Positions 1-26,147 of a stretch of 64,000 nt of DNA are shown here, one piece after another; the stretch's first letter is position 1; every line of letters begins with the position of its first letter. The notes under the pieces were generated by a model, which did no database searches, was not told the origin of the DNA, and saw only the letters and a list, made by a program, of their open reading frames with translations. The translations under genes and the position numbers were made by a program. Source of the DNA: Nitrospinota bacterium (GTDB lineage: Bacteria; Nitrospinota_A; UBA7883); NCBI GenBank assembly GCA_965223725.1, contig CBDCXE010000006.1, positions 610,012-674,011 of the forward strand, read 5' to 3'.

Positions 1-1
1 A

Positions 2-691
2 AAACTGGCTGAAAAAGCTGGCTATGAATTGATTAGCAATAATAGTGGAAGTAAAAAAACAATGTTTTTTATTGCTGATTCATTTGCTACATGGAACAAG
101 GAATATTTGGCAAGTTCATATAAAAACACTTTTATAGTAAATACATGGAGTCAATCATGGAGTCGTATGGAACAATTTCCAATAGATGCGATTAATACAA
201 TTAAACCAGATCTAGTTCTTATGCAATTTTCTGAAAGTCGCCTTGGTGTTAAACGAATAAGCCCATTCATTGTCCCACCATATGGCGGCGCAAACCCCCC
301 TCAAGTGAGGCAAGCTCGGCTGAGGCGACTCTACAAATCGACTAGGGACACTGCTTCGGCTACCGTTAAAAAGGTGTCTGGCGCTGATGGTAAATCGTTT
401 AATTTAGAATTAAACAAGCCAACAGCGAAAATGGTCATTGCACGCTTTGAAGTAATGGCGCATAAAGCGACGACTCTTTCTGTGCAATCCAACTTTAGGA
501 AAAAGGAGAAGTGGAGCGATCTATGCTATAAATATGACGAAATGACAATCATCCATATAAAGCCGGGACGTCACACTGTATATCTTTGTGGGCAGATAAA
601 AGAAAATATTTCTCACCTTACATTTGCAACAACTGAGCCACAGGACCTAACTATAGTAAAAGTGGATGTGCGACCGCATCTAGATCCGTAG
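2..691 (+). CDS. hypothetical protein, 5'-truncated at the window edge (frame open from nt 2; first ATG at 29)
   Basis: ORF track 29..691. The same frame has no stop back to nt 2, so the gene probably continues left of the window. Codon usage is AT-rich like the rest of the island. No catalytic motif recognised. Confidence 0.35.
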   Translation, partial: KLAEKAGYELISNNSGSKKTMFFIADSFATWNKEYLASSYKNTFIVNTWSQSWSRMEQFPIDAINTIKPDLVLMQFSESRLGVKRISPFIVPPYGGANPPQVRQARLRRLYKSTRDTASATVKKVSGADGKSFNLELNKPTAKMVIARFEVMAHKATTLSVQSNFRKKEKWSDLCYKYDEMTIIHIKPGRHTVYLCGQIKENISHLTFATTEPQDLTIVKVDVRPHLDP

Positions 692-765
692 CTATTATTT
701 CTCAGCCGCATTATATCGCATGATGATCCTTGGGCCATAAAGCCTATAGCAACGCTTTATAAAAT

Positions 766-1443
766 CTATTTTGGTTTAGAGCCGAGTATGAAAAACTGTT
801 TTCCTAGAAGAGGCCAGATCAGTGGGATTCGAAGATAAAGGGCTATGAGGGCTGGATGTTTTGGAAACCGCGATTTAGTAGAATAAGGTACAAACCGGTC
901 TATTAATCGATCAACACTAAATCCAGATTTCAGGAACGCTTCGGCGCACGATAAATGTGATAAAGGCAGATGATGGTCATAAAAATCCCAATATTGGCCT
1001 GGGACGTACCTGATATTCGGTTGTAAAGCCATAAATCGACCACCCGGTTCGAGGATACGTAAAACTTCCGCCAAAAGTGTATCAAAGGTCTTTTTGTCTG
1101 GCAAATGCTCGAAAAAATTACTGGTAAATACAACATTGACATCCTCATCCTTAATGAATGAGAGATCTGTTGCGGAGCCTAAATGAAAAGTTACATCAGG
1201 ACCAACAGATAAGGCGGAATCAGGGTTTAAATCCACGGCAAGTTTTTTCCCTGCGTTAATATGTCTGCTGAACTCCCCATATCCTGACGCCAAATCCAGA
1301 AGCGTGTCGCTTGGATTGATATACTGCTGGAAAAATTTTTCGCACAACACTTTCCAAACCATATCCTTTTCGAGTTTCTCCTTTTCAGAGAACCTGTGCC
1401 GATAGAGAACATCTACCTTCTCCACTGCTCTATCGCTCCACAC
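766..1443 (-). CDS. class I SAM-dependent methyltransferase
   Basis: Motif I-like VLDLASGYGEF followed by an acidic loop (Rossmann MTase fold). 225 aa. 14-nt overlap with the upstream GT2 gene, which suggests an operon. Confidence 0.7.
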   Translation of the reverse strand: MWSDRAVEKVDVLYRHRFSEKEKLEKDMVWKVLCEKFFQQYINPSDTLLDLASGYGEFSRHINAGKKLAVDLNPDSALSVGPDVTFHLGSATDLSFIKDEDVNVVFTSNFFEHLPDKKTFDTLLAEVLRILEPGGRFMALQPNIRYVPGQYWDFYDHHLPLSHLSCAEAFLKSGFSVDRLIDRFVPYSTKSRFPKHPALIALYLRIPLIWPLLGKQFFILGSKPK

Positions 1444-2146
1444 GCTCGTAATCAGCAGAAAAAATATTTTTCCATATTTTTAGCATATCTTTAATAGTAG
1501 CCAAGATATTTTTTACAGACACACTGTTACCTTGCCCAAAAGTTCGTGGAAAGGTCTGTATGCCAACCTGCCCGACCTGGTATCCTTTGAGCATGGATTT
1601 AATAGCTATTTCGGCGCCAATAAACGGGCTGTCAGATTCAAGCTTTATATCATCCGCGACTTTCTTTTTCATCATTCGCAGACCGGTGGAAATATCGCGA
1701 AAATGGGTGCGAAAAAGGAATCTTAATATGACATTATAGACCCAGGAGACAAAAATTCTCCAGTTCGAATAAATCTTCTTATAACGAAAGGTTATTATGA
1801 GATCATAATGATCTTTGACCAGAAAAATTTTGTTAAACTCGCCCACATCATACTGGTTATCTCCATCAAGCATTAATATCCACTCGTATTGACACGCGTT
1901 TATTCCTGTTCGAATAGCAGCCCCATAACCTCGGTTTTCCGGGTGATGAATAACTGATATATTTTTATGTTCGCCAGCCAGTTCATCAGCTATCGCGCCT
2001 GATCGATCGGGCGATCCATCATCCACAATAATAACTTCATATGGACAGCCAAGACTCTCAAGCAGGGCAATGGCGTTTTCTGCTACAGTACGGACGGTCC
2101 CCTCATCTCCATATACCGGAAAAAAAAGGCTTGCTGATGTAGGCAT
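1430..2146 (-). CDS. GT2-family polyprenyl-phosphate sugar synthase (Ppm1/ArnC/GtrB-like glycosyltransferase)
   Basis: EVIIVDDGSPD...HPENRGYGAAIRTG...LMLDGDNQYD. This is the typical GT-A DXD layout of dolichyl/undecaprenyl-phosphate hexosyltransferases, and the protein ends in a C-terminal helix. Confidence 0.75.
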   Translation of the reverse strand: MPTSASLFFPVYGDEGTVRTVAENAIALLESLGCPYEVIIVDDGSPDRSGAIADELAGEHKNISVIHHPENRGYGAAIRTGINACQYEWILMLDGDNQYDVGEFNKIFLVKDHYDLIITFRYKKIYSNWRIFVSWVYNVILRFLFRTHFRDISTGLRMMKKKVADDIKLESDSPFIGAEIAIKSMLKGYQVGQVGIQTFPRTFGQGNSVSVKNILATIKDMLKIWKNIFSADYERVER

Positions 2147-2159
2147 AATAATATTTAAC

Positions 2160-2897
2160 CTAAAAATTCATGCGACGGAAAATACTCCATGGTGTCCACT
2201 TTAAAGCAGCGGATATCCACATCCAAAAACTGGGAATATACCATACCCCCCCCTTATTACCTAGGTTATTAACAACCTTCTCTGCAATACGCTCCGGACT
2301 GGCTTTAGGGATAGGAGTAGACATCCCGAATGCCTGGCCAGTGTCGAGATAGCCAACAATGTAAAAAGATACCATTACACCGTATGGAGCAAATCCATGA
2401 CGTATCGACTCGAAAAAACTGGCCAAAGCCCGTTTAGCCGCGCTGTAGTAAATATTTGCATTCCTCCCTCTGGCAGCGGCGATAGAACCAAATCCTACAA
2501 TATCACCTTTGCGCTCTTTTATTATTTTAGGAGAAAAATAAGATATAATTTCGCTCACTGAAGAGAAATTGGCGGCCAATACTTCTATGCCTATAGTTTC
2601 ATCCGGAGGAAATCGATCTTCGTCCCAGGTTGCGCCAATCGGAAATAGCATTCCATTTAGCTCTCCGGTTTTGTCTATCGCCTTCTCAAGTTTACTGAGG
2701 TCAGGGCGGGATGAAGCGTTGAAGGAAAGGGCCACCGGACAAATGGAAACGCCATAGCGTATGGCGCAGTCTGTGGCAAGCGCATCCAGGTCACGCTGGT
2801 CACTGGAGACAATAACCAGGTTGGCTCCTATCCTGGCCAGCGCTACTGTAATTGCTCTTCCGAGGCCTGAAGACGCCCCAACGACAAGGTATGTCAT
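2160..2897 (-). CDS. short-chain dehydrogenase/reductase, DprE2-like (polyprenyl-phospho-2-keto-sugar 2-reductase)
   Basis: N-terminal VVGASSGLGRAIT dinucleotide motif. YSAAKRAL matches the catalytic YxxxK. The C-terminal WSIFRRM tail resembles DprE2 RSIFRKL. ATGA 4-nt overlap with the upstream FAD oxidase gene. Confidence 0.7.
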   Translation of the reverse strand: MTYLVVGASSGLGRAITVALARIGANLVIVSSDQRDLDALATDCAIRYGVSICPVALSFNASSRPDLSKLEKAIDKTGELNGMLFPIGATWDEDRFPPDETIGIEVLAANFSSVSEIISYFSPKIIKERKGDIVGFGSIAAARGRNANIYYSAAKRALASFFESIRHGFAPYGVMVSFYIVGYLDTGQAFGMSTPIPKASPERIAEKVVNNLGNKGGVWYIPSFWMWISAALKWTPWSIFRRMNF

Positions 2898-4228
2898 AGT
2901 CCTGCTCTCATAAGTAATTCAGACATAAATACCCTGTTTGGGTCAAGTTTATTAATTCGGTCAATAGTAAGTTCATACTCTGGATAACTGGCAGACACGA
3001 CCTCCTGTGAAAGTCGGGAGTCTTTAATCAGGTTGGGAATTGCTTTATGCTCCAGGCAAAGCTCGTCAAAAGCTGTGAGAAATATCGATGTAGAACTTGT
3101 CTGGGCCATATCAAGCGTAACGCATATCCCAGGGCCTGCAAAGCGAAAACCAGTTTGCAAGCCAGATGATTTTTTTAATGATATCATGACACCAGGAGCA
3201 TTGTGATTAAACAGCAACGCTTCCAAAAGTTCAAGGAATGCCCCTGCTTTTTCATCAGTTATAATTACCTGCGCTTCCGCCAAACCACGCTTGCCATAGG
3301 CTAAAAAATAATATGGGTTGGCGGCGAAAGGAAAAGTTGATGCAAATAACGATATATTGTTCGTAGAAGTTTTTTTCTCTTCTTGATGCAAATAAAATTT
3401 TAAAGCTGCATTTCTCAATGGGCTGGCCCAAAGGGAGATAGGTGAAATAGAGCGAGCTCGAGCGGTGATGGGTCGGTATGAGGGTGGAGATGTGAATTTA
3501 CCATTTCCCTCTGCTGGTTCACCTGTATACAAAAATCCTCGACCGAATAATCCTTTCGTGGGAGACGCAACATGGAATGTATAGGCAAAATTGGAAGAAG
3601 AAACAGCGCTCGAACGTAATTGTTCCAAACCTTCTGTCAATGAGTTTAGTGAACTGCGATGGAGAAGAGTCTTTTCTCCCTTTTTAATTTGTTCAAGACG
3701 AAGAGTGGCGCTTACGATAATTCCTGTGGAGCCATAACCACCACAGGTCAAATCGAAAAGTTCCTTGTTTTCTTCTTCCGACAACGTAATAAGACCATGA
3801 GCAGGATGATAGAGGACTAATGAGATTACACAAGAATGAAAGCTTCCTGCAACTCCAAAATTTTTTCCGTTTACATCTGCAGCAATGCAACCTCCAATAG
3901 TGATATCTGGATAGCCAGGTTGGACACCAAGGGCAAGCCCACGCCGGGAGGTGGCGCCTAAAAGTTCCCCCAGGGTTATACCAGCCTCAACAGTGACTGT
4001 TTTATTATTTTCATCCAGGAAAAGGATTCTGGAAAAAGAACGCATGGAGACCGTAGTGACACCTTGTCCAAAAGAGGCCGCTGCATAGGAATAGCCGCCA
4101 CCTTGAGCAATATATGGCCCTTTAGCCCACGTTTGGTCAAACACACGGTATCTATCAGGCCGCGCAAAGTCAGAAGAGATAGATATCTGGCCATCGAAAG
4201 ATAAAAATTTGCTTAACTCTGTTTTCAC
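2894..4228 (-). CDS. FAD-linked oxidase, DprE1-like (polyprenyl-phospho-sugar 2-oxidase)
   Basis: GGCIAADVNGKNFGVAGSFHSCV and STGIIVSATLRL match the DprE1 FAD-binding (PCMH) core GGAIACDIHGKNHHSAGSF / LTGIIMRATIEM. The C-terminal KDSR...YP...INKLDPNRVFMSELLMRAGL matches the DprE1 C-terminus. Confidence 0.75.
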   Translation of the reverse strand: MKTELSKFLSFDGQISISSDFARPDRYRVFDQTWAKGPYIAQGGGYSYAAASFGQGVTTVSMRSFSRILFLDENNKTVTVEAGITLGELLGATSRRGLALGVQPGYPDITIGGCIAADVNGKNFGVAGSFHSCVISLVLYHPAHGLITLSEEENKELFDLTCGGYGSTGIIVSATLRLEQIKKGEKTLLHRSSLNSLTEGLEQLRSSAVSSSNFAYTFHVASPTKGLFGRGFLYTGEPAEGNGKFTSPPSYRPITARARSISPISLWASPLRNAALKFYLHQEEKKTSTNNISLFASTFPFAANPYYFLAYGKRGLAEAQVIITDEKAGAFLELLEALLFNHNAPGVMISLKKSSGLQTGFRFAGPGICVTLDMAQTSSTSIFLTAFDELCLEHKAIPNLIKDSRLSQEVVSASYPEYELTIDRINKLDPNRVFMSELLMRAGL

Positions 4229-4779
4229 GTATTATTATGCTTGTTGATTATCTGTATTGTAGCAATTAATATTAAATTACTTACCGTCTGCCTAAATTAT
4301 TAGCCACCATGCCTGGAGAAAATAAAGAGATTTAGTCTATGCTCATAACTGTATTACAATAACGATTTAAATAAGTTAACTTCCTGGTTTTATCATAATA
4401 TAGCAGAGTTAAAATAAATTCTATATTGCCATATTATTTTTAAGTAAACTTTTTCCAAAATTATATAAGTAATAACCTCTGGTATGTGATATTTATTTTA
4501 TAAGAAATTTGCAAACAGTATCATGTGTGTTATCCTGTGTTGGATTTATGCCAAATAATGCAAAGTAATTATAACCGATAACAAATTAACTAATAAAGTC
4601 TTAAGATGCAATTGTATGGAGACTGCCAAAAAAAATGCGGACTTGTACCTGCAAGTTAAGCAAAAAATCTGTGAAAAGCGCTTGCTTATTTAGAACCTGA
4701 CGATAAAACTAAAATAAAATCGCCTGCATCAGTCTGGCAATGGCAACATCACATGTTTGTTTAAATAACACTATTTTAA
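4229..4779. promoter_or_regulatory. 550-bp extremely AT-rich divergent intergenic region (bidirectional promoter region for the DprE1-like operon and the GT-C-like gene)
   Basis: Divergent gene starts at 4228 (minus) and 4780 (plus). The region has long AT runs and no ORF of 60 aa or more. Confidence 0.35.
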
Positions 4780-7110
4780 TTGTCATTTATGCTTAAACCA
4801 ATTGTATACACTGCACTTACTTTTACGGTAATTATTATTTTTACCGTATTCAACCCACTTTTGCCTGGTGTGGGCCTCGATATTTCATGGTATCTTGCAA
4901 ACAACCAAGCAGTAGCGCAGAACGTGGTGTTTGGTGAGAATTTGCTAACTACGCTTGGTCCATACCCATCAATTTATTCGAACGTCTATCATCCTGATAT
5001 TCACCAAATGGCGTTACTAGGTGGCATACTGATTGGCGTATGCTATTCAGTATTATTATTGCTCATTGCGATTGAGTTAGACTGGAAATGGTTGATCCTT
5101 TACATTTGCTTCTTATTTGCCTGTCGTGTCCCGTTTGATACTTATTTGTTTTCATATATCTTCTTTATGTCAATAGTTGTCTACCGTATGACCCTGCCCA
5201 TCTCATCCAATCTTGTGTTGGAGAACACTGCACAAAACAAATGTTTTTATATTTTAGCGCTTGTACCATTGGGACTTTTGTTACTAACCAAAGGATCCGT
5301 CATACCATATATAGTATTAGCTGTTGGTATATGCGTCATTATGTTTTGGATGAGCCGTGATAAAGCATTCGCTTTAATTACTATCATAGTGCCAGTTGCC
5401 AGCTCTTTAGCTTTCTGGGTTGTTTCTGGACAACCTTTATGGGCCTTTCCAAAGTTTGTTGGTAATATGCTTGAAGTTATATTTGGATATTCAGATGCGA
5501 TGTCAGCATCAGGACCAGGTGGCTCATCGCATATTGCTTTGTATTTAATAACATCAGCGATGATTCTTTACCTAACGACAAAAAAAGAGTTTGGTCCACT
5601 CGTTTCAAGACTTCTGCTGTTTACAACGTTTTCATTATTTTTGTACGTTTCATTTAAAGCCGGTTTTGTTAGAGCCGGTATTGGCCATCAAATGATGGCT
5701 AGCACTTCTCTGGTCATAGCGGCGTTATCCATATTACTATTATCTAAAAGTAAATTGCGGTTAATCATACTGCCATTTGTAATAATTACATGGGTATTTA
5801 TTGACGGTCATTTTTATAATAAGCCGGCGGAGAACTTGACCGGGTTACTGCGCTGGGCTGTTGGTGACAGGAATTTTGAAGAAGAATATGAAAATAAATT
5901 TAGTGAAATTAACAGGAAATACTATATTCCTAAACTAACAGGGACAGTGGATATCTATTCTTTTGGTCAGTCATTTTTACTAGCTTCCGGAAATAAGTAT
6001 AACCCACGACCAACGGTGCAAAGTTTTGCGGCGTACACACCATATCTGGCTAGCCTGAACGAGAGATACATTCGAGGATCCAACGCGCCAGACAACATAT
6101 TATTTAGGGTGGAAACCATAGATCACCGATTTCCAAGCCTTGATGATGGAATAAGTTGGCCCACTTTGCTTAACAGATATGAAATATATGGATATGATGA
6201 ATATTTGGATTTATTCTACTTGAGGAAAAAGGCCGAGGCAAAGGGTGATCTTTTTGATGATGAAACAGTTGATATCCAAGGCAATTTCCAACAGGAGATA
6301 TCACTACCTGATAGTGAGGAGGTGTTGTTTGCAGAATTTGATATTAAGCCAACATTATTTGGCAGGGCTATGTCTATTATCTATAAACGCCCCAAAATTG
6401 AAATCAGTATTGTCCTGGAAAGTGGACGATCCCGAACTTATCGAATAATTCCTGGTATGGCCAAGTCTGGTTTTATTATTTCTCCGTTAATTGAACGCAC
6501 AAGAGAATTTATATTTCTAAACAAGCCATACCAGAGCTATTTATCTCCAAATCGTGTGAAAAGTATAGTAATTTCGTCAACTCAAGGTATTTTTAAATCG
6601 TGGGACGAACATTTCATGCTGCGACTTGGAAAGGTAAAGATAGAGTCAAATAGAGACGCCAACCTGTTAAAAGTCATAGATTACGATTACTCAAAAATGG
6701 CGCTACACCCAGCCCAATCTATTAAAATTAGTGTAAAGTGCCAGGGAGGAGTCGATACAATAAATGGCTTCAGGGTAGATAAAAAAATAATAAACGTTTC
6801 TAAAACACTCTTGGTCTATGGATGGTCCACTGCATATTCAACAAAAAGTAAAGTCGCCAGCAATATTTATTTGACTTTAACCGATATGCATGGAGAGACT
6901 AAATATTTGGAAACAAAAAAAGTTGTCAGGCCAAATCTTGCAGAGTATTTTAATAATCCAATGCTATTAAACGCTGGATATTTTGCGAATATTAATATTT
7001 CTAACATTGAAGGGAAATATGCTTTAGGCATATCCCATATGCTTAATGGCTCAATCAAACATTGTGCTAGTCCTCAAATTCAGCTAAATATTAATAAGCA
7101 ACCTAAATAA
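4780..7110 (+). CDS. polytopic membrane protein, candidate GT-C-fold glycosyltransferase using a lipid-linked sugar donor
   Basis: 776 aa. The N-terminal ~400 aa carry roughly 11-13 hydrophobic helices. The C-terminal ~370 aa form a soluble domain, the architecture of Emb/Aft/ArnT-type GT-C enzymes. The gene is divergent from the DprE1/DprE2/GT2 operon. Confidence 0.45.
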   Translation: MSFMLKPIVYTALTFTVIIIFTVFNPLLPGVGLDISWYLANNQAVAQNVVFGENLLTTLGPYPSIYSNVYHPDIHQMALLGGILIGVCYSVLLLLIAIELDWKWLILYICFLFACRVPFDTYLFSYIFFMSIVVYRMTLPISSNLVLENTAQNKCFYILALVPLGLLLLTKGSVIPYIVLAVGICVIMFWMSRDKAFALITIIVPVASSLAFWVVSGQPLWAFPKFVGNMLEVIFGYSDAMSASGPGGSSHIALYLITSAMILYLTTKKEFGPLVSRLLLFTTFSLFLYVSFKAGFVRAGIGHQMMASTSLVIAALSILLLSKSKLRLIILPFVIITWVFIDGHFYNKPAENLTGLLRWAVGDRNFEEEYENKFSEINRKYYIPKLTGTVDIYSFGQSFLLASGNKYNPRPTVQSFAAYTPYLASLNERYIRGSNAPDNILFRVETIDHRFPSLDDGISWPTLLNRYEIYGYDEYLDLFYLRKKAEAKGDLFDDETVDIQGNFQQEISLPDSEEVLFAEFDIKPTLFGRAMSIIYKRPKIEISIVLESGRSRTYRIIPGMAKSGFIISPLIERTREFIFLNKPYQSYLSPNRVKSIVISSTQGIFKSWDEHFMLRLGKVKIESNRDANLLKVIDYDYSKMALHPAQSIKISVKCQGGVDTINGFRVDKKIINVSKTLLVYGWSTAYSTKSKVASNIYLTLTDMHGETKYLETKKVVRPNLAEYFNNPMLLNAGYFANINISNIEGKYALGISHMLNGSIKHCASPQIQLNINKQPK

Positions 7111-7322
7111 ACCACCAATGCAGTCGATAACTAACAAGGCTATATATTACGTTAGCATTATTTCCAGCTGGCGCAGAATAAAAAGATATGTTTCGATTAA
7201 ACCGCACGATCGATTAAAAAATAGAAGAGATACGCGGTTCCATTTTGATTATTCACTGTTAAATTTATAACATATATATACAAACTGGCTACTGTAATAA
7301 TTTAGCGAGATTGCTGTTTGAG

Positions 7323-8270
7323 TCAATTCTGCTCCGCTTCCTTGACGGAATATGCTTTCTTGATTCCGAGTGTACAGCCGCCACATATTGGATGACCAAC
7401 TCTCGATTGGTTTTCAACTCTCAACTGCCTTAGTTCAGGTTTATTATAGATTTCCAAAATGCTTTCATCTTTAACATTGTACTTTCCTAAATCTCCATTC
7501 GCGTCCAGACAGCAAAATGCGACTTTACCATCGGAACAGATATGTATCTGGAACCATTTTGCACACCCTATATCCGGGGTTTCGCTGGTTTTGAGATCAC
7601 TTACCGAGCCTAACCAATTGAACGGTTCGGTAAGAGCGGGGTTAAACATAGGGAATTCATTTTCAACGAAAGCAACATAGTTATCATCATCCAAATTATT
7701 GCTTGCGACACGGGATAAAGTTACAGGAAAAGCAATGTTCCCGTTTACTTTTTCATCATGTAGTAATCTTAAATTGTTCATTATAAGATCCCACGATAGC
7801 CCCATGCTATGTTCATATTTTTCTGGTTCGCATTCATTAAGCGAGACGTTCAACATCATGATATTTTCAAGTTCTGCAAATTTATCGATGATTTTCCCAT
7901 TTAGAGGAGATCCATTTGTATAAAAAGGTATTCTTGCTTGCGGAGCGACCGTTTTTACTTTATCAATAGCATCGAAGATATCTTTATTTAGAAGCGGTTC
8001 ACTTAGGCTTGATAATACTATCCTTATTGGAAGTTTATTTGGAAATTCACCTAGGTCATGCAATATTTTTTCGAAAAGCTCACCTGACATTTTTTCACCT
8101 TTTCTAGATGAACTATCATATGGACAAAAATTGCAAGTAGCGTTACACAGGTTTAATAGATCAAATGTGACCTGGAAAGGATATTCAGAATATCGTTCTT
8201 GCAGAATGGATATCAGATTCTGATATTTAGTTAAAGATTCTTCATTATAGAAATCATTTTTATTATTCAT
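7323..8270 (-). CDS. radical SAM protein with C-terminal SPASM/twitch-like cysteine cluster
   Basis: CNATCNFC is a CX3CX2C radical-SAM motif near the N-terminus. A second Cys cluster lies C-terminally (CSDGKVAFCCLD ... GHPICGGCTLG). Confidence 0.65.
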   Translation of the reverse strand: MNNKNDFYNEESLTKYQNLISILQERYSEYPFQVTFDLLNLCNATCNFCPYDSSSRKGEKMSGELFEKILHDLGEFPNKLPIRIVLSSLSEPLLNKDIFDAIDKVKTVAPQARIPFYTNGSPLNGKIIDKFAELENIMMLNVSLNECEPEKYEHSMGLSWDLIMNNLRLLHDEKVNGNIAFPVTLSRVASNNLDDDNYVAFVENEFPMFNPALTEPFNWLGSVSDLKTSETPDIGCAKWFQIHICSDGKVAFCCLDANGDLGKYNVKDESILEIYNKPELRQLRVENQSRVGHPICGGCTLGIKKAYSVKEAEQN

Positions 8271-8367
8271 GGCAATATTTCCATTTGAAACGAAACCAAC
8301 ATTGCTATAGTAACTGAAAAATTAAATGGCAGGTTGACTGATTTGCAAGTAGAAAAACGTCATGGAG

Positions 8368-9009
8368 TCAATACCGCAATAACCACCCATTTGGAGAATA
8401 AGTTACATTGTATCCATAAAAATCACAATAAGACGCATCGATCTTATAGCGTTTGTAATTTGCTTTTAGGAATGCTTCTACCGCCCGGTTAGGGCCATTA
8501 TTAAACATTTCAAACTGTTTAAGAGGCATGTCATTCAAAATGCCATCCTCTATCACAATATATTCGCCCGGGTGAAGGTAATTATCAAAAAAATTAAGAG
8601 CAGCAGTGCATGTTTCAAATAGATGACCACTATCTTCTACCACTAGCCACGGACGGGGAAGCGAAGATAAAAAACTCTCCGGTAACACTTTTTCCAAATC
8701 AAGGACATCCCCTTCAAGAAATGTTATCCGTTCATCTTCAAACGTTGCTATCGGGTTATTGTCGATGGTGACTATGCGAGGTTGATAACCCATGTTTGAA
8801 GCTGTATCGGCAAACCATAGAGCGCTTCCGCCTTCCTTTGTGCCCAGTTCGATAATAGTCTTTGGTAAGGTTTTCTGGATAAGACGCATATATGAAACGA
8901 TATCAAAAGGGCATTTGATGAATCGGTAACCTTTATAAGTTGTACGTGCAATACCTTGATGAATACCTATTATAGTATCTGCTGGTAGCGATGATTTAAA
9001 GTCACGCAT
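8368..9009 (-). CDS. CmcI/cephalosporin-hydroxylase-family SAM methyltransferase (rhamnosyl O-methyltransferase-like)
   Basis: IIELGTKEGGSALWFAD resembles the CmcI family (PF04989-like) Rossmann motif. 213 aa. Confidence 0.5.
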   Translation of the reverse strand: MRDFKSSLPADTIIGIHQGIARTTYKGYRFIKCPFDIVSYMRLIQKTLPKTIIELGTKEGGSALWFADTASNMGYQPRIVTIDNNPIATFEDERITFLEGDVLDLEKVLPESFLSSLPRPWLVVEDSGHLFETCTAALNFFDNYLHPGEYIVIEDGILNDMPLKQFEMFNNGPNRAVEAFLKANYKRYKIDASYCDFYGYNVTYSPNGWLLRY

Positions 9010-9187
9010 CGAAGTTACAATTACTTTTCATTTTTATGATGCAATTTATAGCATTCGTTTGTTTTGTTAACTTTTTTACGCTTTCCAAACAGTACTTGCT
9101 ATCAATCGATTAGCGCTGGTTTATGATTTGTCTGGGTTGTGTTCAAAGAGTTGCAAATAATAGTTATATTTTTGTTATCTATTGATT

Positions 9188-10036
9188 CTAGTCTGGCGAT
9201 TTCTTTTTTAACGCAAAAAAGCCTTGTTCTAGTACGTCAGGATGATCGACGTAATAGATAAGATCGAGAAACCCACCCCACATCCTTCTAGCGTAAGCAT
9301 CGGTCATGAAAGAATAACCGTAATCAAGATGATTGTAATTGCCTTTGCCGGAGCCTGGCATAAAGACCATTTCTCCCATTTCCATAAATTCAACAAACCG
9401 GCCAAAAGATTCTAAAAAAGGTCGATGTGCTTCACGACGGGACGGTGGCAGTTGATCAACAGGAGTTTCCATTATCGTCTGGTAATGGCCCATGCCAAAC
9501 GATGTAATGAATATCACACCATTAGGTTTTAGGGTGCGTGACATTTCATGCAACCAGTCCAGCCCATGCGCCTGACTTAAATGTGAAAAGACTGAATAGG
9601 CAGTAATGTAATCAAACGATTCATCCTGAAAAGGAAGTTTTGGCGGTTTCGCCGCAATCGGGTGAAAAGTCCCTTGAGGGAAATCTTTTTTTACAGTTTT
9701 GACAAAATCTGGAACCACGTCAACTCCATGAATATGAGCGGCTGGAACATTGCGCAAAAATGTCCTTCCAATACGAGCTGTAGTACCGCAACCAAAATCG
9801 AGAATCTTTGAGTTTTTATCGAGCGTCAAACCTTTACGCCATATTGCGCGTGTAGCTTCGTTATAAAAGCATGTTGCCTCAGATATAGAATCTTTGGCGG
9901 TTGCGCTTCCAAGCATGGCATTATGGGAATACTTGCCGAAGGCCCCCCCATCGACACTATTGTCTGCAAGCGATTCAATCCATGCGTCCCTGAATTCTTC
10001 AACAGGCTTTTTTTCATATTTTTCAAACAGTTCCAC
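9188..10036 (-). CDS. class I SAM-dependent methyltransferase
   Basis: Motif I ILDFGCGTTARIG. Motif II/III acidic residues follow. Confidence 0.7.
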   Translation of the reverse strand: MELFEKYEKKPVEEFRDAWIESLADNSVDGGAFGKYSHNAMLGSATAKDSISEATCFYNEATRAIWRKGLTLDKNSKILDFGCGTTARIGRTFLRNVPAAHIHGVDVVPDFVKTVKKDFPQGTFHPIAAKPPKLPFQDESFDYITAYSVFSHLSQAHGLDWLHEMSRTLKPNGVIFITSFGMGHYQTIMETPVDQLPPSRREAHRPFLESFGRFVEFMEMGEMVFMPGSGKGNYNHLDYGYSFMTDAYARRMWGGFLDLIYYVDHPDVLEQGFFALKKKSPD

Positions 10037-10269
10037 GTTATCAAGGCCTCCGTTAGTCGCAAATGTAATAATGATTAGCCTCGCAATATAGCATACTTGT
10101 TAAACAGAGCAAATATTTTTAGCTATAGCAACGCTCGATTGCAGACATAATCACTTTTTGGTGTTGCCACAATTTACGCACTAAATACAATTTGTCATTG
10201 ATTTTGTCTGCGAGAAATTTTTCGGTAAACCACTTTACCTTGTTATAAGAACTTTTATACATAAACTTC

Positions 10270-11259
10270 CTATTTGGGAGAGGGTAATGTATACCCAGCG
10301 CTTTTTAGATCTAACCCGGTTAACGTAGAAAGAGATAAGTTATCTTCAGCATAATATTCGTTAATGAATTTCATAGACTCTGGTGAAAAGTATCGCGGGG
10401 GTGTGTCAATATATGAGATAAGCTCCATCACTCTTCCATGAACCCCTTCTTCAAAAGTACCCCATGGCCGATAGTCGTATGAAGGGTCCACTCTTTTTCG
10501 CAATCTACCCATTTTTTTTAAGATACGCTGATACCCACTGCCAAACCTTCCAAAAGATACATTATGCCTGGGTTCTTCACTGAGAAAGTCTGCGCATTTT
10601 TTTGTATCAATGCCAGCAAACTCAGATAACGTTTTTGCAAACAGGTCCAGATTGCCCTTCAACCATTCAAGGGGGATAACCAAAACATTTTCTTTTCCAA
10701 AAGTGTCCTGGTAACAACTTACCAATGGACTGTAAAGATATTGCCGCAGATGAAAGTCATTCTGTTGGCCATGATAGTAGTTGAAGGACCTCATCCAGTT
10801 TATCCAGTCATCGCTTGAACCTGTAAACAAGTCTCTCGTAGCAAGCCATCGATAGCCAGAAAATAGAACTGACTTTTGCTCCCTTATGGTTATGAGAATT
10901 CTTACCTTGCCGAAAATACTCTGCAATCGCTGACAGATTAACAAAGGGTCTGCCGCGCCAGCTAAAGATAGCGCTTCTTCAGATAGAACTGTAACAGGCT
11001 TCTCGTTAAGCCGGGGCTTGATACCATGATCATATAACTTATAGGCATTATTCAAATCAAAAAAGTAAGCTGAATGCTGACATATAGATTCAAGCAAAGA
11101 AGCAGTTGATTTGCTCATATCATACCCAACGGCTTCATCCCAATAAGGTTTCCCAAGGTACCGAATATCTGGATGTTTTGCGAACAGGTTAAATTGTAAG
11201 GTGGTAGTGCCGGTTTTCGGCGGGCCGATATGGATAATAAAAGAAGACTCGTTCGCCAT
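10270..11259 (-). CDS. sulfotransferase (PAPS-dependent)
   Basis: N-terminal 5'-PSB loop HIGPPKTGTTTLQ. 329 aa. 1-nt junction with the upstream sulfotransferase gene. Confidence 0.65.
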   Translation of the reverse strand: MANESSFIIHIGPPKTGTTTLQFNLFAKHPDIRYLGKPYWDEAVGYDMSKSTASLLESICQHSAYFFDLNNAYKLYDHGIKPRLNEKPVTVLSEEALSLAGAADPLLICQRLQSIFGKVRILITIREQKSVLFSGYRWLATRDLFTGSSDDWINWMRSFNYYHGQQNDFHLRQYLYSPLVSCYQDTFGKENVLVIPLEWLKGNLDLFAKTLSEFAGIDTKKCADFLSEEPRHNVSFGRFGSGYQRILKKMGRLRKRVDPSYDYRPWGTFEEGVHGRVMELISYIDTPPRYFSPESMKFINEYYAEDNLSLSTLTGLDLKSAGYTLPSPK

Positions 11260-12032
11260 CAGGTCAACAGTTTCTTTTTCAGGTCATTAAACCTGCCCAC
11301 TGCCTGGTGATAGACATCCATTTCTTCTGCCAGCAGTGATTCCAGCTTTTGGCGTTCAGCGGTTGTAATTTTATCCCTGTCAGTTTTTCCATCCGGGTTT
11401 ACATTTATAAAACGTACAGGCTCAACTTTTCCTGACTTGTTAACAGTCAATCTGCCACTGGCATATCGATAGGCGATCCTTTGAAAGTAATTCATATTGA
11501 TCATGTTTTCGACTTCGCTTCTGTCATAGGCTTCTGGCAATCGAAGCTTTGTATTCAGAAACACTTCCAGCATTTCTATTGTAACGCCCAATTCTTCAGA
11601 TAACCCGATGAAATCGTATTCATTGATGGGTTTTCCCTCCAGATAAATGGCCATAGCTCTTGTCATACTAGGGAACGAAGCGAAAGTGACCACATCAAAA
11701 CCATTTTGTTTCATAAACTGGTACGATGGCTTGGTTTCATCTTTTATCCGTAAGATATGCCGATAATTTGAGATCATACGATCAACCGGATGCCTGACAC
11801 AGGTAATGTAGGAAGCGTCATCAAATATACCTTCATACTTTTTGTAGTGAAAATGCCCATGGATCATTTTAAACCGCCTAAGGAAATCTTTATGCAAAAT
11901 TACCTGCGCCCTGTCCTCATCCCTGGGGATATGTTGGTAATAATCAAAATATACGTGGCGGCTGAACGAGTGGTCGAAATAGTTGGCTAATGTGGTGCCA
12001 GCAGTTTTCGGGATGTGTATGGAAATAATCAT
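11259..12032 (-). CDS. sulfotransferase (carbohydrate sulfotransferase-like, Sulfotransfer_2-type)
   Basis: N-terminal IHIPKTAGTTLANYF 5'-PSB motif, typical of Gal-3-O / HS-2-O sulfotransferase-like enzymes. 257 aa. Confidence 0.65.
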   Translation of the reverse strand: MIISIHIPKTAGTTLANYFDHSFSRHVYFDYYQHIPRDEDRAQVILHKDFLRRFKMIHGHFHYKKYEGIFDDASYITCVRHPVDRMISNYRHILRIKDETKPSYQFMKQNGFDVVTFASFPSMTRAMAIYLEGKPINEYDFIGLSEELGVTIEMLEVFLNTKLRLPEAYDRSEVENMINMNYFQRIAYRYASGRLTVNKSGKVEPVRFINVNPDGKTDRDKITTAERQKLESLLAEEMDVYHQAVGRFNDLKKKLLT

Positions 12033-12309
12033 ATCAGGAGATTATAAATCAATTAAACTAGATCAGCTTTTGTAAGCGAATAATTGCATTCATTAAAACC
12101 CCATCTGATTTGCGTATTTAAATAGAATTGTTTTCGTATCTTTCCGGCGGGATTTTATCACACACTAATATTTCCTTACAACCGAACATGAATAAATCAG
12201 AACGACAGCAATTAAATTAAATAGTTTTATTTATATAATATACAGCATGATCAAAGCCTTACCCTGTATAATATGTATTTGTGGCCACTAAAATATTTTC
12301 ATCTATCTA

Positions 12310-12338
12310 TTGACACCCACCACCAAAATTTATAAACT
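12310..12338 (+). promoter_or_regulatory. sigma70-type promoter candidate for the tRNA-tuf operon (-35 TTGACA, 17-nt spacer, -10 TAAACT)
   Basis: TTGACA at 12310-12315. TAAACT at 12333-12338. The first tRNA starts ~57 nt downstream. Confidence 0.35.
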
Positions 12339-12394
12339 ACTCGTTTATTGTTTTCAAAGGCTAGTGTTTCCGGTATTTTAGAAAGGTTTTCGGC

Positions 12395-12470
12395 GCCGGC
12401 GTAGCTCAGTTGGTAGAGCAGCTGATTTGTAATCAGCAGGCCGCGGGTTCGAGTCCCATCGCCGGCTCCA
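12395..12470 (+). tRNA. thrU: tRNA-Thr (anticodon TGT)
   Basis: Cloverleaf read by eye. Acceptor stem GCCGGCG/CGCCGGC. GTAGCTCAGTTGGTAGAGC D-arm. Anticodon loop TTTGTAA. GGTTCGAGTCC T-arm. Encoded CCA. Confidence 0.9.
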
Positions 12471-12541
12471 TATGTTTCCAGCTGTCAGTGGCGGTGTTAG
12501 TCTATTAATTATAATAATTTAGAAAGTCCATAGTTGGATTC

Positions 12542-12626
12542 GGGGAGGTTCCCGAGTGGTCAAAGGGAGCAGACTGTAAATCTGCCGGCATAGCCTTCGG
12601 AGGTTCGACTCCTCCCCTCCCCACCA
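12542..12626 (+). tRNA. tyrU: tRNA-Tyr (anticodon GTA)
   Basis: 85 nt with a long variable arm. Anticodon loop ACTGTAAAT. GGTTCGACTCC T-arm. Acceptor stem GGGGAGG/CCTCCCC. CCA encoded. Confidence 0.9.
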
Positions 12627-12639
12627 TTTATTAGGTTGG

Positions 12640-12715
<76 letters not shown>

Positions 12716-12787
12716 TTGGTTTCTAATCGCAGGAGCGATGGAGCGAAGGATATAGGCAAAGAGAGCGCTTACGCTTTTTAATAAAGC

Positions 12788-12862
12788 GCCCGCGTAGCTC
12801 AGTGGTGGAGCGCTTCCTTGGTAAGGAAGAGGTCATCGGTTCAATCCCGATCGCGGGCTCCA
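12788..12862 (+). tRNA. thrT: tRNA-Thr (anticodon GGT)
   Basis: Acceptor stem GCCCGCG/CGCGGGC. Anticodon loop TTGGTAA. GGTTCAATCC T-arm. CCA encoded. Confidence 0.9.
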
Positions 12863-12984
12863 TACCATGATTGTAATGGCGAACTGGTAAGTAGTTAGTT
12901 TGGTTTGAATGACAGGCGCATGTAATGGTTCATGCCTGGTTGGAATGATAAAAGATCATAAAGTGAATGCAGGAGTGATCAGCG

Positions 12985-14175
12985 ATGGCTAAGGAAAAAT
13001 TTGACAGGAGCAAGCCTCACGTAAACATCGGTACGATAGGTCATGTGGACCATGGCAAGACGACGTTGACAGCGGCGATAACGGAGGTGTTGAGCAAGAA
13101 GGGTTTGGCGGATTACATTCCCTTTGACGAGATAGACAAGGCTCCTGAGGAGCGTGAGCGTGGTATCACCATCGCGACGGCCCATGTGGAGTATCAGACG
13201 GAGAACCGCCACTATGCCCATGTGGACTGCCCTGGCCATGCTGACTATGTGAAGAACATGATCACCGGCGCTGCGCAGATGGATGGGGCGATATTGGTGG
13301 TGTCCGCCGCGGACGGTCCGATGCCTCAGACGCGGGAGCATATCCTGCTGGCGCGTCAGGTTGGCGTTCCTTACATCGTGGTGTTTCTGAACAAGGTGGA
13401 CCAGGTGGACGACCCGGAGTTGCTGGAGCTGGTTGATCTTGAGATCCGTGAGCTGCTGGACAAGTACGATTTTCCTGGAGAGGACACGCCAGTGATCCAG
13501 GGTTCCGCTTTGAAAGCGCTGGAGAACCCGGAGGATGAGGAGGCGAACAAATGCATAATGGAGCTGATGGCTGCTGTGGACAGCTATATACCTGAGCCTG
13601 AGCGTGATGTGGACAAGACGTTTCTGATGCCTGTGGAGGATGTGTTCACGATATCGGGTCGCGGCACGGTTGTGACCGGTCGTGTGGAGCGTGGGATCGT
13701 ACGCACCGGCGAAGAGGTGGAGATCGTTGGCATCCGTGACACGCAGAAGACGGTTGTGACCGGCGTGGAGATGTTCCGGAAGATCCTTGATGAAGGAATG
13801 GCTGGCGATAATGTAGGGTTGTTGCTTCGCGGCACGAAGCGTGAGGAAGTGGAGCGCGGCCAGGTGTGCGCGCAGCCTGGCAGCATCACACCGCACAAGA
13901 AGTTCAAGGCTGAAGTATATATATTGACGAAGGAAGAGGGTGGCCGTCACACGCCTTTTTTCAAGGGGTACCGTCCGCAGTTTTATTTTCGGACAACAGA
14001 TGTTACCGGAGTGGTGGAGCTTCCGGAAGGTGTGGAGATGGTAATGCCTGGTGACAACGTGAGCATAGTGGGCGAGCTGATCACGCCGATCGCCATGGAG
14101 AAAGAGCTGCGGTTCGCCATCCGTGAAGGCGGCCGCACCGTCGGCGCAGGCGTCGTCGCAGAAATTATTGAGTAG
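12985..14175 (+). CDS. tuf: elongation factor Tu
   Basis: [28 protein letters not shown]...DCPGHADY...NKVD. A complete 396-aa EF-Tu. Confidence 0.97.
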
Positions 14176-14441: not shown

Positions 14442-14642
14442 GTGGATATGAACAAGGTTCAGCAAGGCGTACAGTTTTTAAAAGAGGTCAGGGTAGAGAC
14501 CCGGAAGGTGACGTTTCCGGACAGGAAAACGACACTGATGACCACATCTGCGGTCATAGTGTTTGTGATAATTATCTCTATCTATCTGGGTATTGCTGAT
14601 TTTATTTTATCGAAACTTATGGGGCTTGCGCTTAATACGTGA
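14442..14642 (+). CDS. secE: preprotein translocase subunit SecE
   Basis: 66 aa with a single C-terminal TM helix. The conserved EVRVETRKVTFP-like SecE region. The tuf-(rpmG)-secE-nusG context. Confidence 0.85.
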   Translation: MDMNKVQQGVQFLKEVRVETRKVTFPDRKTTLMTTSAVIVFVIIISIYLGIADFILSKLMGLALNT

Positions 14643-15388
14643 TGATGGAAGACGAAACGAAAAAAGAAGCGGAGGCTCTGGAAAATGAAGAGTCCGAGCA
14701 ACAGGAAATGACAGAATCAGTTGAACCTGCGTCTTTGGATAAAATCTTCGGGCAGGAGGTTGTCGCTGAGGAAAGCGACCTGGACCCTGCGGTAGAGGCG
14801 ACGGAAAGCGCGCCTGTTGCGGAAGCGCCGCCGGTTGTGGAGCAGAGTAAAAAGTCTAGCAAAATGAAATGGTATGTGCTCCATACATATTCCGGGTATG
14901 AAAAGAAAGTGCGCGACCAGCTGAGCGACCGGCTTTCCCAGCACGGCATGGCCGACAAGGTGGGTGACATCATGGTGCCGGAAGAGAGCGTGGTGGAAGT
15001 GAAGAGCGGCAAAAAACGAGTAAGCGCCCGAAAGTTTTTCCCCGGTTATGTATTGATAGAGATGGAGATGAACGAAAAGCTGTGGCACGTGGTCAAAGAG
15101 ACACCGCGGATCACCGGCTTTCTGGGCGACGCGCATCTGCCGTCACCACTATCATTGGAAGAAGTAAACAGAATAAAAGAGCAGATGACAGGCGAGACCG
15201 ACACGCCACGGCCGAAGTTTTCTTTCAACGTGGGCGAGCAGGTGCGTGTCACCGATGGCGCGTTTGCAAACTTCACCGGCACGCTGGAAGAGGTCGATAC
15301 CGAGCGCGGCAAAGTGAAGGTGATGATAAGTATTTTTGGACGGTCTACCCCTGTGGAGCAGGAGTTTTCCCAGATAGAAAAGATATAA
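14639..15388 (+). CDS. nusG: transcription termination/antitermination factor NusG (with ~75-aa acidic N-terminal extension)
   Basis: KWYVLHTYSGYEKKV NGN domain. KOW motif FNVGEQVRVTDGAFANFTGTL. Possible internal start at M76 (nt 14864). Confidence 0.85.
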   Translation: MMMEDETKKEAEALENEESEQQEMTESVEPASLDKIFGQEVVAEESDLDPAVEATESAPVAEAPPVVEQSKKSSKMKWYVLHTYSGYEKKVRDQLSDRLSQHGMADKVGDIMVPEESVVEVKSGKKRVSARKFFPGYVLIEMEMNEKLWHVVKETPRITGFLGDAHLPSPLSLEEVNRIKEQMTGETDTPRPKFSFNVGEQVRVTDGAFANFTGTLEEVDTERGKVKVMISIFGRSTPVEQEFSQIEKI

Positions 15389-16575: not shown

Positions 16576-16606
16576 TTGGCAATAGAGAAATTAAGGAAAA
16601 GAGACA

Positions 16607-17131: not shown

Positions 17132-17190
17132 CGAAACAGAAAATTTGTTTTATTTATAAATATACCTATCGATAGGAAAGGGATTGTAAA

Positions 17191-17574
17191 ATGTCTGCAA
17201 CGAAAGACGATGTGAAAGATTATCTGAAAAACCTTCCGGTTCATGAGCTGCTGGGGCTCGTCAAAGAGCTGGAAGAAGAGTGGGGCGTTTCAGCCGCCGC
17301 TCCTGCCGCTGTGGCCGCTCCGGCCGGTGGCGATGGCGCCGCCGCCGCAGAGGATGAAGGGCCTGCCCAGGTTTCTGTTGTCCTTTCCGCTGTGGGTGAC
17401 AAGAAAATTCAAGTGATCAAGGTAGTTCGCGAAATAACCGGATTGGGACTAAAAGAGGCCAAGGAACTGGTCGACGGCGCGCCAAAGGCTGTTAAAGAGG
17501 GTATTGAAAAGGACGAGGCGGACAAAATCAAGGCACAGCTCGAGGAAGTTGGCGCGGTTATTGAAATCAAGTAG
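17191..17574 (+). CDS. rplL: 50S ribosomal protein L7/L12
   Basis: 127 aa. Ala-rich hinge. C-terminal [21 protein letters not shown]...AVIEIK. Confidence 0.95.
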
Positions 17575-17640
17575 CTCTTGAAATTGTTAAGGGTGGGAAA
17601 GCCTTGCGCTTTCTCATCAACGGCTACGGCAGTCAATTAT

Positions 17641-21848: not shown

Positions 21849-26147
<4,299 letters not shown>

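Follow-up and report, generated by a model that had tools for sequence, protein, structure and literature searches.

The first 12.4 kb of a 64,000-nt stretch of DNA from a Nitrospinota bacterium is AT-rich, carries genes for glycan-related enzymes and stops shortly before a cluster of tRNA genes and tuf. The stretch (assembly GCA_965223725.1, contig CBDCXE010000006.1, positions 610,012 to 674,011 of the forward strand) was analysed at its full length and is called the window below. The locus raises the questions of whether this island was acquired horizontally, whether the adjacent tRNA served as its integration site, and what its enzymes would make. Our analysis indicates that positions 1 to ~12300 are probably the right part of a low-GC accessory cluster of at least 12.3 kb, composed of a module for periplasmic glycosylation (module A) and a module for tailoring (module B), and acquired horizontally without the tRNA as integration site. 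Low-GC glycan-modification clusters are common, and as a genomic island this one is ordinary. It holds one unusual enzyme combination, a GT2 glycosyltransferase upstream of a DprE1/DprE2-type epimerase.

Nucleotide Composition of the Island

The composition of the island (window bases 1–12394) was compared with that of the backbone (bases 12395–64000; 51.6 kb, rich in housekeeping genes). The GC content was 39.4% in the island and 50.2% in the backbone. In 1-kb windows, the GC content was 34–46% inside the island and 41–56% outside, with the step between 12 and 13 kb. The GC content at third codon positions (GC3) of the 11 island open reading frames (ORFs) was 0.32–0.46 with a mean of 0.378, and the mean of 33 other genes was 0.580 (Mann-Whitney p = 1.4e-6). 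Because GC3 is also low, the shift is not a mere effect of amino-acid composition. The Karlin codon bias relative to ordinary core genes was 0.438 for the island and 0.153 for the highly expressed tuf-rpoC block, and for 10 of the 11 island genes the island pool was the nearer one in codon usage, the core pool the more distant. In dinucleotide signature, the island stood at a distance of 65.6 from the rest, compared with 18–47 for every other 12.4-kb segment of the window. The shift in GC3 and dinucleotides spans all 11 island genes, soluble enzymes included. On each of the measures applied (GC, GC3, codon bias and dinucleotides), the island is thus foreign in composition, and the AT-richness that the original prediction had noticed by eye was borne out by both windowed GC and codon usage.

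The two spacers for which long A/T runs had been claimed do contain them. The spacer 4229–4779, between the divergent DprE1-like operon and GT-C-like gene, has 28.7% GC and eight A/T-only runs of at least 10 nt. The spacer 12033–12394 has 30.9% GC and several such runs, and the runs in both spacers are 10–18 nt long. Both are divergent promoter regions. No ORF of at least 50 aa and no Rfam RNA family was found in 4229–4779. A promoter and terminator scan of the island gave as many candidates as expected from shuffled sequence (39 vs. 36.6 and 11 vs. 10.8), and only the candidate at 12310–12338 was backed by conservation.

Lowish GC3 values (0.42–0.47) were also found outside the island, in yidC, at 28072–28983 and at 39220–40808. 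The minus-strand gene at 28072–28983 encodes an Asp_protease_2/DUF4124 protein and adjoins tRNA-Pro(cgg) (29125–29201). The plus-strand genes at 39220–39813 and 39834–40808 encode a TPR/YfiO-like lipoprotein and a FlgT_C-domain protein. All three have island-like codon usage and may be further accessory insertions.

Right Boundary and Gene Order in Related Genomes

Between the start of the last island gene and tRNA-Thr (12395) lie 362 nt, in agreement with the ~360 nt estimated previously. The features on this side of the island are:

12033–12300, no strand: AT-rich spacer containing the right boundary of the island; 29.5% GC, no alignment to the related locus L095
12301–12394, plus strand: core, promoter of the tRNA-tuf operon (TTGACA at 12310–12315, 17-nt spacer, TAAACT at 12333–12338)
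12395–12862, plus strand: core, tRNA-Thr(tgt), tRNA-Tyr(gta), tRNA-Gly(tcc) and tRNA-Thr(ggt), called by ARAGORN and Rfam
12985–14175: core, tuf

The tRNA block is followed by tuf, rpmG, tRNA-Trp, secE and nusG. Seven relatives were found through NusG, of which three loci (L012, L094 and L095) were usable upstream of tuf. The best NusG matches were 67–76% identical and came from Nitrospinae/Nitrospirae metagenome-assembled genomes or a hydrothermal vent metagenome; RpoB was 70–81% identical. No close relative was present in the collections searched, and the sole match of the core block in the E. coli collection was tRNA-Tyr, so that the source is not an enterobacterium.

In L095, the four tRNAs recur in the order of the window and are followed by tuf, rpmG, tRNA-Trp, secE and nusG. 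Upstream of its tRNA-Thr, argH, a ubiE-like methyltransferase gene and mazG (~50% GC) stand in place of the island. In the intergenic alignment of L095 and the window, the tRNAs and the TTGACA-17-TAAACT promoter are conserved, and nothing upstream of ~12300 aligns. Since the homology with L095 starts at ~12300, the right boundary lies within 12033–12300. L012 and L094 have the order priA-rpsL-rpsG-fusA-tuf-(rpmG)-tRNA-Trp-secE-nusG, without the tRNA block. In this lineage, the tufB-type block is therefore not universally conserved as had been assumed, fusA-tuf taking its place in these two loci. Gene order next to the block thus differs from that of the window in every informative relative (argH-tRNA-Thr in L095, fusA-tuf in L012 and L094), and the island proteins had no match in any relative locus. 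The island is absent from this position in 3/3 informative relatives, all of them distant. Because of this distance (RpoB 70–81%), the absence indicates lineage-specificity and does not bear on recency or direction (gain or loss). The arrangement in L095 supports a lineage-specific acquisition.

The promoter hexamers and nearby bases are conserved between 12301–12394 of the window and 3560–3621 of L095, and the proteins of the two loci are only 59–91% identical. This conservation indicates that the predicted tRNA-tuf operon promoter is strongly constrained.

The contigs of the remaining four relatives (L001, L011, L093 and L096) start in or at the start of tuf and are uninformative upstream. 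This points to a second tuf copy, nearly identical to the first, at which short-read assemblies of this lineage break; the window contig reads through.

Gene Content and Layout

Gene calls were checked with Pfam, NCBIfam, PDB sequences and PHROGs. The island contains two minus-strand operons, one plus-strand gene and one ORF cut by the left edge of the window:

2–691, plus strand: truncated ORF (ORF1), 3' part of a gene; GC3 0.34, island-like codon usage
766–1443, minus strand: class I S-adenosylmethionine (SAM) methyltransferase (Pfam Methyltransf_11/25); last gene of the left operon
1430–2146, minus strand: GT2 glycosyltransferase, 238 aa (Pfam Glycos_transf_2, E = 1.2e-26), predicted polyprenyl-phosphate sugar synthase type (ArnC/GtrB/DPM1/PpgS-like)
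2160–2897, minus strand: short-chain dehydrogenase/reductase (SDR), DprE2-like (adh_short, E = 2.3e-23)
2894–4228, minus strand: flavin adenine dinucleotide (FAD)-dependent oxidase, DprE1-like (FAD_binding_4); first gene of the left operon
4780–7110, plus strand: GT-C-like inner-membrane protein, 776 aa; divergent from the left operon
7323–8270, minus strand: radical SAM/SPASM protein (twitch-like), very divergent (Pfam Radical_SAM and SPASM); last gene of the right operon
8368–9009, minus strand: CmcI / rhamnosyl O-methyltransferase family (PF04989, E = 2.4e-26)
9188–10036, minus strand: class I SAM methyltransferase (Pfam Methyltransf_25/11/12)
10270–11259, minus strand: sulfotransferase, weak sequence match (Sulfotransfer_1, E = 1.7e-4; Sulfotransfer_3, E = 1.6e-3; both below gathering scores)
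11259–12032, minus strand: sulfotransferase, carbohydrate type (Sulfotransfer_2, E = 7.4e-10; Sulfotransfer_1, E = 3.4e-7); first gene of the right operon

Pfam and NCBIfam reproduced the gene list of the original prediction, namely a GT2 protein, DprE1/DprE2-like enzymes, three methyltransferases, two sulfotransferases and a radical SAM protein. Its two operons are present on the minus strand; the plus-strand gene and the truncated ORF have to be added to them. The frame of ORF1 is open from base 2, and therefore the gene and the island run past the left edge; the left end of the cluster lies beyond the window. ORF1 had no Pfam, NCBIfam, PHROG or PDB match.

Enzymes of the Left-Hand Operon

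The best NCBIfam matches of the GT2 protein were AglJ, ArnC, PpgS and Dol-P-hexose transferase, and its best PDB matches were ArnC, Dol-P-Man synthase and GtrB sll0501. These matches place it, as a prediction, in the polyprenyl-phosphate sugar synthase type.

The FAD-dependent oxidase matched the DprE1 model NF053785 over its full length (39–441 of 444) with E = 8e-47 and 160 bits, the cutoff being 500 bits. Its best PDB matches were the DprE1 of M. tuberculosis and M. smegmatis (7e-26, 94 bits, residues 36–441). The next PDB family, galactonolactone dehydrogenase, matched in the FAD domain alone with 1e-11, which is 15 orders of magnitude worse. A KDSR motif of the oxidase aligns with the same motif of DprE1. 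The enzyme was 38% identical to the GT2-linked homologue of a metagenome locus (L050) and ~25% identical to the enzyme linked to PPPRS in Pantoea. By homology, the oxidase is classed as a DprE1 homologue and not as an equivalog.

The SDR matched the DprE2 model NF053786 over its full length with 62 bits, under the 250-bit cutoff, and is likewise not an equivalog; the generic SDR model PRK07102 outscored the DprE2 model on it (119 bits vs. 62). It was 26% identical to the SDR of the Pantoea cassette and 38% identical to that of L050. We propose that this DprE2-like SDR is the keto-reductase half of an epimerase. The DprE1/DprE2-like calls of the original prediction thus hold as full-length model matches that are sub-cutoff. 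Because both scores are far below the equivalog cutoffs, the substrate is presumably not decaprenyl-phosphoribose.

Several genes of the cassettes described below have no counterpart in the window. No UbiA, GtrA, LPG_synthase, NAD-epimerase or DAO homologue was detected in the whole 64 kb, a tblastn search of the window with the Pantoea HAD-UbiA protein gave no match, and no island ORF had a UbiA Pfam match. There was no small membrane ORF in the island spacers and no Wzx, Wzy, ABC transporter or initiating transferase gene in the window.

The 776-aa Membrane Protein

The plus-strand gene encodes a protein of 776 aa; the database copy starts at 4789 and has 773 aa. No Pfam or NCBIfam model covers it. 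An AlphaFold model built with 39 homologues reached a pLDDT of 89.5 and a pTM of 0.87. In this model, a membrane domain of ~345 residues with 11 helices is followed by two periplasmic helices and ~400 residues of beta-rich domains; the beta-rich periplasmic C-terminal region as a whole spans ~430 aa. The charge distribution fits an N-in/C-out topology, and the 53-residue first loop contains no Lys or Arg. A GLDxSW motif lies in this first periplasmic loop; its Asp34 is shared by 34 of the 39 sequences and replaced by Glu in two more. The longest structural match of the protein was AftA. Foldseek against the PDB returned Ig-like matches to the C-terminal domains only and none for the membrane domain, and a profile search of PDB sequences found no solved relative, only a weak C-terminal match to an amidase domain.

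The model therefore gives moderate structural support to a GT-C-like protein. The earlier GT-C-like call would fit the 11 transmembrane (TM) helices, the first-loop Asp and the gene neighbourhood, and we propose that the protein is a GT-C-type transferase using a lipid-linked sugar.

The family has many members: a profile search against 1.84 billion cluster representatives, in which family representatives were counted at 50% identity, returned 10,639 at E ≤ 1e-3 and 5,230 at 1e-30. Beyond the nearest homologue, they occur in scattered taxa, among them Gamma- and Betaproteobacteria. Two family copies lie side by side or close together in the loci L062 and L064.

Gene Neighbourhoods of the Membrane Protein Family

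The neighbourhoods of 83 family loci, including 80 metagenome loci with many short contigs, were searched by tblastn with the window and Pantoea proteins. In Pantoea sp. At-9b, a cassette directly after smpB (L009 6529–15999, CP002433) forms one operon with the order HAD-UbiA fusion (PPPRS type), FAD oxidase, SDR, family member, NAD epimerase, DAO-type oxidase, GtrA and LPG_synthase_TM. The family member there has 792 aa and is encoded at 3284384–3286762 of CP002433. Across the 83 loci, DprE1-like genes were found in 30, DprE2-like genes in 31, HAD-UbiA in 22, NAD epimerase in 31, DAO oxidase in 27 and GtrA in 19. Homologues of the methyltransferase at 766–1443 (41–56% identity; 55% in L050) lie beside the GT-C-like gene in 15. 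Of the 23 loci whose sequence extends at least 5 kb in both directions, 15 carried at least one cassette gene and 11–12 carried DprE1/DprE2. The family member was the sole GT-C candidate noticed in these cassettes. By gene content, the cassettes match the three-component pentofuranose systems, and the neighbourhood appears to support a GT-C role more strongly than the fold does.

Two loci resemble the window. L050 has the order family member, LPG_synthase_TM, FAD oxidase, SDR, GT2 and methyltransferase, and its proteins are identical to those of the window at 54% (GT2), 55% (methyltransferase), 38% (FAD oxidase) and 38% (SDR). L076 has the order FAD oxidase, SDR, GT2 and methyltransferase, then a desaturase and a second methyltransferase, then the family member. 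On gene order and homology, the window, L050 and L076 appear to form a variant in which a GT2 replaces the phosphoribosyl pyrophosphate (PRPP)-dependent synthase beside the DprE-type pair. Because the window has a GT2 as predicted donor synthase and no UbiA homologue, the lipid-linked sugar of this GT2-primed sub-branch is probably not derived from ribofuranose. A literature search found no description of a GT2 + DprE1/E2 system beyond Kelly et al. 2024.

The L076 contig is very AT-rich (27% GC), and its fatty-acid desaturase and second methyltransferase genes are inserted at 4059–5988. In L008, which contains the closest relative of the 776-aa protein (56%), the nearby region 16226–22094 encodes a GT2, a methyltransferase, an 817-aa protein without Pfam match and a PTPS_related (PF10131) membrane protein. 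This locus has no DprE1/E2 within 10 kb; its GT2 is only 28% identical to that of the window, and its methyltransferase is unrelated.

A widespread cassette combining DprE1/DprE2-like genes (for epimerisation at C2), NAD epimerase, DAO-type FAD oxidase, HAD-UbiA, GtrA and the 776-aa family recurs in L009, L023, L033, L041, L049, L063–L065, L067 and others. Acting on a single lipid-linked pentofuranose, two epimerisation activities could produce a sugar epimerised twice, for example lyxofuranose. According to Kelly et al. 2024 (PMC11127046), lyxofuranose has never been found.

Enzymes of the Right-Hand Operon

The minus-strand operon of module B is convergent with the 776-aa gene, with 212 nt between the modules. 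The sulfotransferase at 11259–12032 has heparan sulfate 2-O-sulfotransferase as its best PDB match (6e-4) and galactose-3-O-sulfotransferase as its PHROG match (3e-4); it contains the motif HIPKTAGTT, and its gene overlaps the next by stop and start. The sulfotransferase at 10270–11259 matched the PDB sulfotransferase 3rnl weakly (0.024) and carries the motif IGPPKTGTT, in which PKTGTT is the 5'-phosphosulfate-binding loop. Both proteins thus carry this loop (PKxGT[TS]), which characterises PAPS-dependent sulfotransferases. The protein at 8368–9009 matched the rhamnosyl O-methyltransferase model NF045824 with 69 bits, sub-cutoff, and CmcI in the PDB with 4e-11.

The radical SAM protein had as best PDB match BtrN, a dehydrogenase of a sugar-type substrate (2e-5); the other PDB match was the peptide epimerase YydG. 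It is a near-orphan, with one other protein (28%) at E ≤ 1e-10 in a word-seeded search of 5.8 billion proteins. A role as an anaerobic sulfatase-maturating enzyme was considered and rejected: no such family was among the best 25 of its 31 NCBIfam matches, and no sulfatase gene was seen.

No signal peptides were seen in the module B translations, which are of the cytoplasmic type. Action of these enzymes on the same glycan would therefore have to precede export. Modules A and B are joined by adjacency and shared composition, from which we infer a functional link.

Proposed Pathway and Relation to Known Systems

The predicted functions can be arranged into one pathway. Starting from a nucleotide sugar, the GT2 of module A (766–7110) would attach the sugar to polyprenyl phosphate on the cytoplasmic side of the membrane. 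The DprE1-like FAD oxidase would then convert a sugar hydroxyl (at C2 by analogy) to a ketone, and the DprE2-like SDR would reduce the ketone to the epimer. The co-conserved methyltransferase may O-methylate the sugar. A flippase encoded outside the visible part would move the lipid-linked sugar across the membrane, where the 776-aa GT-C-like protein would transfer it to an acceptor glycan or protein, with its C-terminal beta-rich periplasmic domains probably binding the acceptor. Before export, the module B enzymes (7323–12032) would probably act on this glycan, or on one next to it, by sulfation, methylation and oxidation.

It is possible, and we suggest it only tentatively, that the cluster represents an undescribed branch in which a GtrB/ArnC-type GT2 makes a polyprenyl-phosphate sugar, a DprE1/DprE2-type pair epimerises this hexose or pentopyranose, a GT-C-like family delivers it, and sulfation and methylation follow in this organism.

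The closest comparison is with the three-component systems. That of C. youngae O1/O2 consists of a PPPRS (ORF15), a MATE flippase (ORF14) and a GT-C enzyme (ORF12, GT136), with an optional epimerase (ORF13), and candidate systems for Araf contain DprE1/E2 homologues (Kelly et al. PNAS 2024, PMC11127046). ORF12 has 652 aa, 11 TM helices and a carbohydrate-binding module at 503–652, and no other epimerases were known to these authors in such side-chain systems (PMC11127046). The three-component systems follow the same logic as the pathway proposed for the window: the monosaccharide donor is lipid-linked, an epimerase may act on the lipid-linked sugar, and a large membrane enzyme, GT-C-type or in the window GT-C-like, has beta-rich domains at its C terminus. 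Elsewhere the family of the window protein sits in PPPRS-DprE1-DprE2-GtrA cassettes, as in the three-component systems. The window differs in its predicted donor synthase, which is a nucleotide-sugar-dependent GT2 and not a PRPP-dependent PPPRS of the UbiA type, and in having neither a MATE nor another flippase; the sister locus L050 has an LPG_synthase_TM gene. The membrane domain of the window protein is also smaller (~345 aa vs. ~500 aa), ORF12 having been compared by description only.

The mycobacterial decaprenyl-phospho-arabinose pathway comprises Rv3806c (UbiA), Rv3807c, DprE1/DprE2, Rv3789 and the Emb/Aft GT-C arabinosyltransferases. The window shares with it an FAD oxidase and SDR pair closest to DprE1/DprE2, and AftA is the membrane protein's longest structural match. 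In contrast to this pathway, the window has sub-cutoff scores, a GT2 in place of UbiA and a Gram-negative-type host.

A GtrB/ArnC-type GT2 feeding a GT-C enzyme is also the principle of the Gtr (GtrA/GtrB/Gtr*) systems, which glucosylate O-antigen, and of the ArnC/ArnT systems, which modify lipid A; these systems are often horizontally mobile and low in GC. Those systems do not include DprE1/E2-type epimerisation, and the window has no GtrA. Its GT2 is short (238 aa) and, judging by its sequence, apparently without the TM helices that GtrB has at its C terminus. The window further resembles low-GC O-antigen or capsule-type loci in its GC content ~11 points under the backbone, its atypical codons and its absence in three relatives. 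It differs from them in having no flanking anchor pair known yet, no Wzx/Wzy/ABC or initiating transferase in view and no integrase or att site.

If the proposed pathway is correct, DprE-type chemistry would extend beyond the conversion of ribose to arabinose, to a hexose or pentopyranose; the GT2 variant implies DprE1/E2-like chemistry on sugars other than ribofuranose. Because DprE1 is one of the major drug targets in tuberculosis, natural variants of it with other substrates are of mechanistic interest. In addition, a large membrane-protein family without a Pfam or NCBIfam model gains, from fold and neighbourhood, a probable role as the GT-C partner of DprE1/DprE2-type lipid-linked sugar pathways.

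Origin of the Cluster and Alternative Explanations

Several observations weigh against a horizontally acquired cluster of two cooperating glycan modules. No integrase, insertion sequence (IS) or phage gene was found among the ORFs of 1–12394 with Pfam, NCBIfam and PHROGs. Only distant relatives were compared, so that these may have lost the genes or the acquisition may be old. In L008 (0.40–0.42 vs. 0.45–0.51) and in Pantoea L009 (0.44–0.47 vs. 0.51–0.56), too, the GC content of the GT-C-like gene is below that of its flanks. The DprE1/DprE2 scores are far under the NCBI equivalog cutoffs (160 vs. 500 and 62 vs. 250 bits), and no flippase (GtrA, SMR, MATE, LPG_synthase_TM) occurs anywhere in the 64-kb window, where the pathway is thus incomplete. 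At three positions where the family otherwise conserves an acidic residue well, the window protein has none (N54, H75 and position 300); the nearest homologue, P0002 (56%), shares the loss of some family-conserved acidic residues. Lastly, the five module B proteins and ORF1 have no homologue in any of the 83 family loci. Horizontal acquisition as originally predicted is thus supported by foreign composition and absence in three relatives; these do not bear on recency or direction, and no mobility gene was found. The predicted surface-polysaccharide module stands as far as its glycan-related content is concerned. The acceptor is inferred only, and the window contains no Wzx/Wzy/ABC, initiating transferase or flippase gene.

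The tRNA adjacency was considered separately. No direct repeat of any tRNA segment was found in 1–13000, where the only hits were tRNA-tRNA similarities and short chance matches, and Rfam returned tRNAs only, with no tRNA fragment even at E ≤ 0.1. These empty searches agree with the earlier remark that no integrase, IS or att repeat is visible. The island lies on the 5' side of the tRNA, as also remarked earlier, upstream of the conserved promoter of the tRNA operon. The 5' side of a tRNA is not used by integrases. Because the island is upstream of the tRNA promoter and no integrase, att repeat or tRNA fragment was found, the position beside the tRNA is probably incidental. An integrative island of the classical, tRNA-targeted kind, with the integrase and the second att site beyond the left edge, is accordingly improbable: it would explain why the island abuts a tRNA cluster while its left boundary is outside the window, and the Pantoea cassette does lie right after smpB, a classical tmRNA hot spot, but the position upstream of the tRNA operon's conserved promoter and the empty repeat, tRNA-fragment and integrase searches argue against it. 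An assembly or binning artefact, in which a left part from a lower-GC organism was joined near the tRNA/tuf region, is the least probable of the explanations considered. The contig of 810,643 bp is metagenome-assembled, the assemblies of four relatives break at tuf, and the composition changes abruptly there. However, the switch lies in unique AT-rich sequence ~100–360 nt upstream of the first tRNA and not in a repeat, and the promoter segment 12301–12394 already matches L095. The 12 kb moreover holds accessory genes only, with no housekeeping gene of a second genome, and shows a normal divergent-operon layout with a spacer shared with the tRNA operon.

The main alternative, which we regard as rather unlikely, is a resident and long-standing variable glycan locus whose genes were lost or relocated in the relatives. 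The low GC would in that case be typical of surface-glycan clusters and be maintained by diversifying exchange, relaxed codon selection and AT-biased membrane or accessory genes. The missing mobility genes, att repeats and tRNA fragments would fit this explanation, as would the fact that in two unrelated hosts (L008 and Pantoea L009) this gene has a low GC as well (GT-C-like gene), the core gene yidC with a GC3 of 0.47 and island-like codon usage, and the weakly informative synteny with distant relatives. It accounts poorly for a shift that affects GC3 and dinucleotides in all 11 genes including soluble enzymes, for a sharp boundary that coincides with the start of L095 homology, and for a closest GT-C-like homologue that is just 56% identical and lies in another context, the rest of the family being taxonomically scattered. 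About equally doubtful is the explanation that two unrelated modules lie side by side and that module B tailors something other than the glycan, for example a small molecule or a lipid that is sulfated or methylated. The lack of module B and ORF1 homologues in the 83 family loci speaks for it, together with the nearly orphan radical SAM protein, its match to the peptide epimerase YydG, and a window without a scaffold-building glycosyltransferase beyond the GT2. On the other side, the best matches of module B are carbohydrate enzymes (heparan sulfate 2-O- and galactose-3-O-sulfotransferase, rhamnosyl O-methyltransferase/CmcI and BtrN), the two modules share a common composition as convergent neighbours 212 nt apart, and the listed ORFs showed no gene for a precursor peptide, a polyketide synthase, a non-ribosomal peptide synthetase or lipid synthesis.

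Other Observations in the Core Region

NusG (14639–15388) has an acidic N-terminal extension of ~75 residues and is 249 aa long, compared with 176–182 aa in most matches. Extensions of varying length occur in the nearest relatives (225–278 aa), and SecE is short (66 aa). In the region 30284–38745, yidC and jag/khpB lie on the plus strand; next come purF, dnaN and polA, encoded on the minus strand, and dnaN is not beside dnaA. Near 33 kb, the sign of the GC skew and the gene orientation switch together.

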